Below, one piece after another: positions 3,100 to 32,782 of a DNA stretch of 32,782 nucleotides. Source of the DNA: a virus (taxonomy: Duplodnaviria > Heunggongvirae > Uroviricota > Caudoviricetes); IMG/VR virus record IMGVR_UViG_2671180643_000012. One strand, written 5' to 3'. Made by a program: the position numbers and the translations under genes. Numbering within the stretch: position 1 is the first letter of the stretch; each line of letters starts with the position of its first letter. The notes beneath the pieces were generated by a model. The model saw only the letters and a list, made by a program, of their open reading frames with translations. It was not told where the DNA came from and ran no database searches.

Positions 3100-3578
3100 T
3101 ATCCCGCCCCCATCATACCTGTGAATCTGGTCGCCAGACTGCCGGCCTTACCGATGAGCGACTCCGCCTGTTTACCGATATCGCCATAAAGCGCGGCCAG
3201 TGATTCATCAACGCGGGTGAGTGACAGCGTAAAATCAATTTTCCGGGGTGTGCCGTCTGCAAAGAAAATACTCCCTGTTTCACTCACCCTGCTGATGACA
3301 TACATGCCGTAAATCATGCCGGTGCCATCCAGCAACGGCCACGCCCGGCCTTCCTCTGCCATCAGCCTGAGCGTGGTCATCGTCAGCTTCCCGCCGGTCA
3401 GTTCGGGATAAAGCACGCCGGCAAGCGTAATGTTTTCCTCACCCACACCGAGAAACTGAAAGGCATCCCGTTTACCGATACGGGAATTTGACGGCCAGCG
3501 ATAATCTGATTCACGCTGCATGGTCTGGTGTGGCAGCGTCTGGCGCATAAAAACAAACATACCTAACGCGAGCATCAT
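3099..3578 (-). CDS. U: Tail protein U
   Basis: 159 aa, same length as P2 gpU; start overlaps the D stop (coupled). Confidence 0.85.
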   Translation of the reverse strand: MMLALGMFVFMRQTLPHQTMQRESDYRWPSNSRIGKRDAFQFLGVGEENITLAGVLYPELTGGKLTMTTLRLMAEEGRAWPLLDGTGMIYGMYVISRVSETGSIFFADGTPRKIDFTLSLTRVDESLAALYGDIGKQAESLIGKAGSLATRFTGMMGAG

Positions 3579-31186: not shown

Positions 31187-32200
31187 ATGGCAATCAAAAA
31201 ACTCGATGATGGTCGATATGAAGTGGACATCCGCCCTACTGGACGTAACGGAAAACGCATCCGTAGGAAGTTTGATAAGAAAAGCGAAGCTGTCGCTTTC
31301 GAAAAATACACGTTGTACAACCACCACAATAAAGAATGGCTATCAAAACCAACAGACAAACGACGTCTGTCGGAACTGACACAGATCTGGTGGGATTTAA
31401 AGGGTAAACACGAAGAGCATGGGAAATCTAATCTTGGAAAAATTGAAATCTTCACAAAAATAACGAATGACCCATGCGCATTTCAAATCACGAAATCCCT
31501 TATCAGCCAGTACTGCGCCACCCGAAGAAGTCAGGGTATTAAACCTTCGAGTATCAATCGTGATTTAACATGTATTAGCGGCATGTTTACAGCCCTGATT
31601 GAAGCGGAGTTATTCTTTGGTGAGCACCCTATCAGAGGGACAAAGAGGCTTAAGGAGGAAAAACCAGAAACAGGCTATCTCACACAGGAAGAAATTGCCT
31701 TACTGCTTGCAGCACTTGACGGCGACAATAAAAAGATTGCGATTCTTTGCCTGAGTACAGGAGCACGTTGGGGAGAAGCAGCTCGTTTGAAAGCAGAAAA
31801 TATCATCCATAACCGCGTCACGTTTGTTAAAACGAAAACAAACAAACCACGCACCGTCCCGATCTCAGAGGCTGTTGCCAAAATGATCGCGGATAACAAA
31901 CGAGGTTTTTTATTCCCTGATGCTGATTACCCTCGCTTCAGACGAACAATGAAAGCAATAAAACCGGATTTGCCAACGGGGCAAGCCACACATGCACTAA
32001 GGCACAGCTTTGCCACTCATTTCATGATTAATGGAGGAAGTATTATCACACTACAACGGATACTAGGTCACACGCGGATTGAGCAAACTATGGTTTACGC
32101 TCATTTTGCGCCAGAGTACCTTCAGGACGCCATTTCTCTTAATCCGCTAAGAGGTGGTACTGAAGCCGAGAGTGTCCACACAGTGTCCACAGTAGAGTAA
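31187..32200 (+). CDS. int: Tyrosine integrase
   Basis: 337 aa, P2 Int length; C-terminal catalytic motifs (HALRHSFATH ... LGHTRIEQTMVYAHF) with the tyrosine nucleophile; next to the att core. Confidence 0.9.
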   Translation: MAIKKLDDGRYEVDIRPTGRNGKRIRRKFDKKSEAVAFEKYTLYNHHNKEWLSKPTDKRRLSELTQIWWDLKGKHEEHGKSNLGKIEIFTKITNDPCAFQITKSLISQYCATRRSQGIKPSSINRDLTCISGMFTALIEAELFFGEHPIRGTKRLKEEKPETGYLTQEEIALLLAALDGDNKKIAILCLSTGARWGEAARLKAENIIHNRVTFVKTKTNKPRTVPISEAVAKMIADNKRGFLFPDADYPRFRRTMKAIKPDLPTGQATHALRHSFATHFMINGGSIITLQRILGHTRIEQTMVYAHFAPEYLQDAISLNPLRGGTEAESVHTVSTVE

Positions 32201-32279: not shown

Positions 32280-32307
32280 AATCTCCCTTACACGGGCTTA
32301 TTTTTTA
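32280..32307. repeat. int-proximal att core (attL): aatctcccttacacgggcttatttttta
   Basis: Exact 28-bp direct repeat of 1507-1534, about 80 bp after the int stop. Confidence 0.85.
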
Positions 32308-32464
32308 TGCATAAGCCCTATCCCTGGTCACCGTCTTCCATTGACCACATCGATAGAATCTCCCTTCATAGCACGATGCCTTTCACGTAACGGCATCGTG
32401 CTCGCACAGGTTCCGGCTAAGCACAACCAGAACGCGCATGTTTGACGCTTACCAAAAAATATTC

Positions 32465-32782
32465 TCACTCTCCACATTTGAATGTCAGACGAGCGACGCC
32501 ATGTAATCCTGCACCTTCTGTCTTCAGGTCAACTATCTGCATTTTTTTGCCCTGAGTAACACAGAAATGGGCTGCATCATTTTTTACTATATTTTCTGCA
32601 CCAGATATTCTGCCCCTGGCTAAAGAAGCTTCGGCTTCGGTGTAGTATTGGTTATCGAGTTTACGCTGAATATTACTTTTATATGCAAGACCAAATTTAC
32701 CGATACTTGTCTCATCATTATGCACAGCACAACCAGACATAATAAAAATACTAATTAATGATATAGCAGCTATCTTTTTCAT
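32465..32782 (-). CDS. yegR: Small lipoprotein, YegR-like (host gene)
   Basis: 105 aa with a signal peptide and lipobox (IFIMSGC); start codon at the last three bases of the window. The gene name is inferred from the size and the yegQ neighbourhood in E. coli K-12. Confidence 0.5.
   Translation of the reverse strand: MKKIAAISLISIFIMSGCAVHNDETSIGKFGLAYKSNIQRKLDNQYYTEAEASLARGRISGAENIVKNDAAHFCVTQGKKMQIVDLKTEGAGLHGVARLTFKCGE

Follow-up and report, generated by a model that had tools for sequence, protein, structure and literature searches.

An arm-like sequence beside the cyaR attachment site of P2-like prophages in Escherichia coli as the probable left end of an ancient P2-family relic

Introduction

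Genes encoding structured RNAs, such as sRNA, tRNA, and tmRNA genes, can serve as integration sites at which the 3′ end of the RNA gene forms the attachment core, the gene is regenerated by integration, and foreign DNA becomes layered. Tabulated insertion sites of this kind include rybB, cyaR, and ssrA (PMC3032704), and the sdsR locus of Salmonella is an RNA-gene site that gathers foreign DNA repeatedly and still serves living phages (PMC3333887). For P2, "cyaR RNA" is listed as insertion site in a comparison of laboratory Escherichia coli strains, in which it is occupied in strain W, in K-12 (by ogr-D′), and in strain B (PMC3032704). The arm-type sites of P2-type phages are direct repeats with the consensus tgTGGaCa, and such repeats are common to P2-type phages with different integration sites (PMC3448106). 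In Salmonella, the islet sseK2-srcA-steD, which is horizontally acquired, is located between yegQ and yegS (PMC7614968).

The described element that comes closest to the one reported here is a prophage remnant in E. coli K-12. Its first description is reportedly that of Barreiro and Haggard-Ljungquist (1992). This ogr-D′ (ogrK-yegZ) remnant lies at the cyaR site and is a deletion-reduced P2-family prophage that starts with an intact core and the ogr-side arm by cyaR (PMC3032704). It is young: its arm and its ogr gene hardly differ from their counterparts in living phages. Only K-12-type strains carry it, and its right junction is situated within the far core.

Here, we analyze a stretch of 32,782 nucleotides (IMG/VR record IMGVR_UViG_2671180643_000012; referred to as the window) that carries a P2-like prophage at the same site. 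The host flank to the right of this prophage, at 32308–32402, probably forms the left boundary of an ancient P2-family relic that is flanked by att sequences and is present in nearly every sampled E. coli. Compared with the K-12 remnant, this relic would be much older, with a divergence of about 20–30%, it contains no phage genes, it occurs in nearly all sampled E. coli, and it lies further to the right. Prophage fossils at RNA-gene integration hotspots are well known as a general phenomenon, of which the cyaR relic is a further instance; it differs from the other RNA-gene sites in that both ends of the old insert are recognizable as P2-type arms and in that the old arm is the very flank which is abutted by the present prophages.

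The resident prophage and its attachment core

The window starts with yegQ/trhP (1–1362, + strand), the host gene left of the attachment site, which is a 453-aa open reading frame annotated as yegQ/trhP in the matching E. coli genomes. It is followed by the sRNA gene cyaR (RyeE; 1445–1530, + strand), which scores 100.7 bits with the Rfam family RF00112 (gathering score 47) over model positions 1–85 of 85. The terminator stem-loop and the T-run of cyaR supply the att core, as the core consists of the descending half of the CyaR terminator stem and the T-run, i.e., the 3′ half of the terminator, which was missed by an earlier, sequence-only reading of this DNA. As a result of this overlap, cyaR is regenerated at the left prophage end. 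The approximately 85 nt ending in the core are found downstream of yegQ also in Klebsiella and in another genus, with a conservation far above that of ordinary intergenic DNA, and conservation of the terminator extends to Klebsiella, Citrobacter, and Salmonella, with one stem pair changed in a compensatory way (T-A in E. coli vs. C-G in the outgroups). A perfect core is taken to explain the preference of P2 for the cyaR site. The attB core itself is polymorphic in E. coli: strain M24 carries ACACAGGC (L002 720–724), a G to A change in the CyaR terminator stem, and the K-12-type attB alleles (L001/L003; K-12, cS76a) have seven T residues and not six as in the window (32290–32307). These changes might affect CyaR termination as well as the efficiency of P2 integration.

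The core common to both prophage ends has a length of 28 nt. In attL it is located at 1507–1534 (AATCTCCCTTACACGGGCTTATTTTTTA) and corresponds to the annotated attP core of P2 (AF063097), and in attR it is located at 32280–32307, where it duplicates the 3′ half of the cyaR terminator and is 100% identical to the P2 attP core region. On the ogr side, the annotated P2 genome AF063097 contains, in this order, an IHF site beside the core, a 28-nt Int footprint (GGTCACGTCCACACATTGACCACATCGA, called "P arm"), and the ogr terminator. Mapping of these positions onto the window places the ogr-side arm of the resident prophage, the "P arm" of the P2 record, at 1535–1596, with the IHF-site region at 1535–1566 and the Int arm footprint, comprising the two arm-type repeats GTCCACA and GACCACA, at 1569–1596. 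The ogr terminator follows at about 1598–1626, ahead of ogr on the + strand. The gene ogr is found at 1636–1854 (− strand), where the 72-aa Ogr was placed at an internal ATG (MFHCPLCQ...) of a 93-aa open reading frame tabulated at 1636–1917, and gene D extends from 1936. At the opposite end, int (31187–32200, + strand) is a 337-aa open reading frame, the 3′ end of which contains two copies of the arm-type repeat AGTGTCCACA (32171–32191) that correspond to the Int "P′ arm" annotated for P2. P2-family phages show 96–97% identity to the resident prophage over 83–87% of 24.5 kb. The right core copy is separated by a flank of 157 bp from yegR (32465–32782, − strand), a lipoprotein gene (PF27694) whose start codon is at the last base of the window and which lies within the putative relic.

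A probable degenerate arm in the right flank

The sequence-only reading had drawn attention to a resemblance between 32323–32356 and the phage DNA at 1566–1597, and this resemblance was recovered with coordinates differing by 1–3 bases, as an alignment of 32324–32353 (CTGGTCACCGTCTTCCATTGACCACATCGA) with 1567–1596 (CTGGTCACGTCCACACATTGACCACATCGA). The local score of 38 compares with 15.8 ± 2.3 in 300 shuffles, the maximum of which was 26. The host stretch at 32326–32353 (GGTCACCGTCTTCCATTGACCACATCGA) matches the P2 Int "P arm" footprint without gaps at 22 of 28 positions, and the similarity to the arm is confined to the footprint and the two bases before it, with nothing beyond. One arm-type site of the host arm is intact, namely TGACCACA at 32340–32347, the reverse complement of TGTGGTCA, and the other arm-type repeat is destroyed and reads GTCTTCCA. 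A block of 15 nt, which includes one arm-type site, is identical between host flank and phage. The spacer from core to footprint amounts to 18 nt in the flank vs. 35 nt in P2, and these 18 nt show no resemblance to the IHF-site region of the phage.

Core, spacer, and arm follow each other in the same order, on the same side and in the same orientation at 1507–1596 and at 32280–32353. The flank therefore agrees with a functional P2-type arm in its attP-like side and orientation, but it has one intact tgTGGaCa repeat where such an arm has at least two in direct orientation, and it lacks the IHF-binding region of about 35 nt between core and repeats. With one of two Int sites left and the IHF-site region lost in the common allele, the flank is presumably functionally inert today. 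We interpret 32308–32353, including the arm-like stretch at 32324–32353, as a degenerate ogr-side arm that forms the left end of the ancient relic.

Alleles of the flank in Escherichia coli

Scanning IMG/VR for the core resulted in 122 core occurrences, in which the right flanks of phage type are nearly uniform and those of host type fall into alleles. The common short allele (S) is the one present in the window. Two long alleles, L1 (...TGCATAAGCTGTAAATACGGATTGATCC...) and L2 (...CATAAACCATAGAGACGGATTGATCC...), contain 12 extra nt between core and arm; both are rare, as allele-specific searches in 5426 complete E. coli genomes found L1 in 4 and L2 in 145 of them, and only these two retain a spacer of 30 nt. 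Over the full length from core to footprint, L1 is identical to the phage arm at 47–48 of 63–64 positions, with an alignment score of 24 vs. −10.6 ± 4.4 in shuffles, and the L1 spacer alone matches the IHF-site region of the phage at 20 of 33 positions, which was scored as well by 5 of 2000 shuffles. As judged from these alignments, the likeness to a part of the arm which is missing from the common allele indicates common descent with progressive deletion and not convergence.

The host arm is approximately 20% diverged from all sampled phage arms, while the phage arms are nearly uniform among themselves. Around the surviving arm site, a run of 27 nt is invariant in 21 distinct E. coli flank alleles, for which the probability by chance is about 0.17 by a hand estimate. 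Four of the 122 IMG/VR core occurrences show the attR flank ACGCGTAAGCCCTATCC, in which a phage-type CGCG stands right after the core and is followed by host flank; this suggests either an exchange extending beyond the 28-nt core or host alleles that contain those bases. The sequences of phage (ACGCGTAA) and host (ATGCATAA) remain similar over a further 7 nt past the core.

An insert of about 1 kb between cyaR and yegS

In Klebsiella and another enterobacterial genus the gene order is baeS-baeR-yegQ-cyaR-yegS, with 243 bp from yegQ to yegS and no yegR, and Citrobacter amalonaticus, also without yegR, has 395 bp from yegQ to yegS. Because these outgroup genera proceed from yegQ and cyaR to yegS without yegR, E. 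coli is seen to carry an insert of about 1 kb directly past the T-run of cyaR. Homology to the outgroups resumes upstream of yegS at TCCTCCGACTTTCATCCTG... (L140 position 3501). A cyaR-yegS junction free of the relic was found in 0 of the 5426 complete E. coli genomes.

The right end of the relic lies beyond the window and was characterized in two E. coli loci (L139 and L140). The part beyond the window comprises about 330 nt, a decayed int-side arm, and a decayed core, and it ends about 85 nt before the start codon of yegS. The last 28 nt of the insert (L140 about 3474–3500) match the core at 20 of 28 positions, the part of the int-side arm adjoining this decayed core is identical at 21 of 32 positions, and the last 60 nt match int-side arm and core together at 41 of 60. 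In a position-specified test, the global score of this 60-nt match was 16 vs. −9.9 ± 4.1, reached by 0 of 2000 shuffles; an unconstrained local alignment of the whole 444-nt yegR-yegS spacer with the int end of the phage gave a score within the shuffle range. In multiple alignments, the decayed core is in register with the attR core of the prophage and with the native cyaR terminator of Klebsiella.

The insert is bounded by direct repeats of the core (left 28/28, right 20/28) and contains element arms just inside both repeats, ogr-side on the left and int-side on the right, so that an intact core with a degenerate ogr-side arm at one end and a degenerate int-side arm with a decayed core at the other reproduce the orientation of a P2 prophage. 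It is missing from related genomes that keep the flanking genes (Klebsiella, Citrobacter amalonaticus, and another genus). Residual phage genes are not recognizable in the E. coli relic, which contains only yegR and, in some alleles, a fragment of a partner gene.

A YegR homologue is not carried by any deposited phage, save for records that include the host flank. YegR homologues with 76–81% identity are found elsewhere, in the neighborhood of glutaminase, nitroreductase, and Ivy (L012–L014 and L018, enterobacterial assemblies), and those adjoining yegQ all belong to E. coli assemblies with frameshifts; the position of yegR next to yegQ appears to be specific to E. coli. In other bacteria, the yegR homologues are followed by a gene encoding a 110-aa lipoprotein. 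Some E. coli (M24, 23AR0806) contain an extra 170 bp between flank and yegR (L002 887–1057; L140 about 2679–2850), and this fragment codes for the N-terminal approximately 37 residues of a protein homologous to the 110-aa lipoprotein, with an identity of 41%. The window is without this fragment, which would fall between 32458 and 32459. The yegR cassette was probably once composed of two genes, of which the window has the deleted form.

The same slot in related bacteria

Owing to the strong conservation of YegQ, its 90% clusters do not resolve the species of Escherichia, for which YegS is better suited. A contig of an E. albertii-like genome encodes a YegS with 90% identity to the E. coli protein, and its yegS DNA shows 80–90% identity to E. 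coli genomes. Just upstream of yegS this contig carries cdtABC (L147 142–2284), 89% identical to cdt-V of P2-like phages. It has no int gene; the interval between cdtC and yegS (L147 2430–2531) matches the int-side arm of P2 exactly over 47 nt and includes a diverged core. This core meets the host DNA at the same point as the decayed core in E. coli. By its sequence, the locus resembles a P2 relic with a toxin operon at the position of the E. coli relic, with an attR that is fresher and a right end that is far better preserved than those of the latter.

In Salmonella (CP019409, L148 5153–5235), the cyaR core is followed by GCGTACAATCAAT...AAAATTGACCACAC, a pseudo-arm which matches the P2 arm at 44 of 64 positions, a result obtained in 0 of 2000 shuffles. 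Past the pseudo-arm lie a small hairpin and then sseK2, srcA, and steD (L148 5433–7388). At the yegS end of the Salmonella locus no decayed core is recognizable, and the vestige consists of the left arm only. A repeat of the type (ATGTTT)n is present at about 7416–7470 of L148. The sseK2-srcA-steD islet and the cdtABC locus share with the E. coli relic the cyaR-yegS slot, a P2-type arm vestige at one end, and the presence of cargo genes; the cargo differs, as it consists of type III effectors and a chaperone in Salmonella, of the cytolethal distending toxin in the E. albertii-like genome, and of the lipoprotein gene yegR in E. coli. On the evidence of these vestiges, the 3′ end of cyaR is a recurrent integration site of the P2 family, at which relics with different cargo are found.

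In Citrobacter amalonaticus (L150 3778–3935), about 155 extra nt are located between the cyaR T-run and the conserved block upstream of yegS. This segment, delimited by the inverted repeat CCTAAATCGCG/CGCGATTTAG, shares the 11-mer CCCTGGTCACC with the pseudo-arm of E. coli and might represent a further small scar or else a miniature mobile element.

Origin of the flank

To represent the unoccupied locus, a synthetic empty site was composed of the 3′ end of yegQ, one core, the flank described here, and yegR. With at least 80% of the query covered in one place, it was found in 4565 of the 5426 complete E. coli genomes, in most sampled rows as a single piece with 97–100% identity (loci L003, L004). 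In about 860 of the 5426 genomes (16%) the cyaR site is split beyond the joining distance, which would fit the presence of a prophage or of some other large insert. K-12 carries the flank to the right of, and besides, its ogrK-D′ remnant, the right junction of which is within the far core; the record "Phage TP" (AY639599) represents this K-12-type remnant too. The sequence-only reading had proposed that the flank is the scar of an earlier P2-like prophage, as in the case of ogrK, with extended homology between attP and attB as the alternative, and had named an arm in empty attB sites as the finding that would speak against a scar. Such an arm is what the 4565 genomes contain, so that extended homology applies and the flank is the native right flank of attB. 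Of the scar itself, the derivation from a phage is retained, with an ancient integration as the likely cause of the homology; the strain-level event has to be given up, since so many genomes share the flank and since K-12 has it next to its own remnant.

A recent scar, in which an earlier P2-like prophage was deleted in this strain as ogrK-D′ was in K-12, is thus extremely unlikely. The layout of arm and partial core does resemble the product of a deletion from arm to far core, and K-12 demonstrates that such deletions happen at the cyaR site; however, 4565 genomes have the same or nearly the same flank at a site where no full prophage is present, the arm differs by about 20% from sampled phage arms that are almost alike among each other, and substitutions in common exclude independent recent scars in most of the "empty" sites. 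A resemblance arising by chance in an AT-poor intergenic stretch can practically be dismissed: the shortness of the match speaks for it and nothing more, no shuffle reached the observed score in three position-specified comparisons, and the same pattern recurs in Salmonella and in the E. albertii-like genome. It is also very unlikely that the transfer went in the opposite direction, i.e., that the flank is ancestral host DNA from which the P2 lineage took its ogr-side arm by aberrant excision, with no earlier integration. That aberrant excision can carry along adjacent host DNA is known from the gal and bio transducing phages of lambda, and attB and attP do have core and arm on the same side. 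A transfer from phage to host is nevertheless favored, because the outgroup genera have no such sequence past cyaR, because the segment in E. coli ends in a second, decayed core accompanied by homology to the int-side arm, and because the tgTGGaCa repeats are common to P2-type phages with other sites, which makes the motif one of the phage (PMC3448106).

A relic origin would also be compatible with an arm that is still active, in that the surviving site TGTGGTCA would bind the N-terminal domain of P2 Int. A fossil arm recruiting Int would then help to make cyaR the preferred P2 site, or would alter excision via an attP-like attR, and an old prophage scar would condition the behavior of later phages at the same site. 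The 15-nt block and the 27-nt invariant run are in line with this idea. Against it stand the loss of the second repeat, the shortening of the IHF-site region in the common allele, the length of the invariant run, which does not clearly exceed chance expectation, and the perfect core, which is already taken as the explanation of site preference; an active relic arm appears unlikely to us.

The ancient relic that we favor would have originated as follows. Before E. coli diversified, a P2-type element would have integrated at cyaR, thereby duplicating the core. The left core would have been kept, staying perfect and being reused because it is the working CyaR terminator, and the right copy would have been free to decay. 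The element would subsequently have lost nearly everything apart from about 1 kb, which comprises, in this order, the degenerate ogr-side arm, the stem-loop, yegR (with the partner-gene fragment in some alleles), an AT-rich spacer, and the decayed int-side arm and core. Present-day P2-like phages would use the intact left core, with the consequence that their attR abuts the old arm. We reconstruct this order of events from the homologies, positions, and orientation that are observed, the lack of the insert in three genera used as outgroups, and the parallel relics. As no phage gene survives and YegR is absent from deposited phages, the ancient element need not have been a phage and could instead have been an integrative island of P2 type; alternatively, yegR may have entered later. 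It is possible that yegR is a domesticated cargo gene of the ancient element.

The relic corrects the annotation logic of this region, since apparent host DNA right of the P2 attachment site would be derived from a phage and the core is the cyaR terminator. It would also provide an origin for yegR, which E. coli, unlike three outgroup genera, has between yegQ and yegS, in a slot that has apparently taken up different cargo in related bacteria via P2-type integration. For the prediction of prophage boundaries, it implies that an arm-like sequence past the core marks neither the edge of the current prophage nor a tandem or recent second phage.

Partial core, hairpin, and direct repeat in the flank

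The first 10 bp of the core had been seen to follow the arm-like stretch, and an exact copy of them, AATCTCCCTT, is indeed located at 32357–32366, 3 nt past that stretch; the same sequence stands at 32280–32289 as the start of the attR core. By a hand estimate, the chance that any 10-mer of the core recurs in the 157-bp flank is about 0.005. The partial core is polymorphic in E. coli, reading AATCCTCCTT in K-12 and AATCCCCCTT in others, and a counterpart was not found in the Salmonella flank. It is best read, as a conjecture, as what remained of a core after an intermediate integration with subsequent deletion, in which case it would be the left part of that core, much as the K-12 remnant retains the right part of one. 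The 67 bp between the two copies of AATCTCCCTT were considered as the entire scar, which was ruled out by the real insert of about 1 kb; the scar-free junction predicted by this idea, GTGTAATCYYCCTTMATAGC, gave three chance matches (Planctomycetota, Kiritimatiellae) in genome contigs.

The perfect 10-bp inverted repeat reported at about 32369–32399 is contained in a stem-loop at 32370–32402 with an 11-bp stem (32370–32380 and 32392–32402) and an 11-nt loop. The predicted folding energy is −21.3 kcal/mol, with z = −5.3 vs. shuffles. As a candidate intrinsic terminator the stem is stable, but a T-run is missing on either strand and a terminator scan of the flank returned 0 sites. Neither flank nor hairpin matches an Rfam family, and the stem changes in other hairpin alleles are not compensated. 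The relic model neither requires nor explains the partial core or the hairpin. On the − strand the stem-loop lies downstream of yegR, and yegR transcripts may have their 3′ end there. Most of yegR is flanked by a 12-nt direct repeat, AGCACAACCAGA, at 32420–32431 and 32726–32737 of the window, and one of the 5426 genomes (L152, E. coli FDAARGOS_1077) lacks precisely what lies between the two copies.
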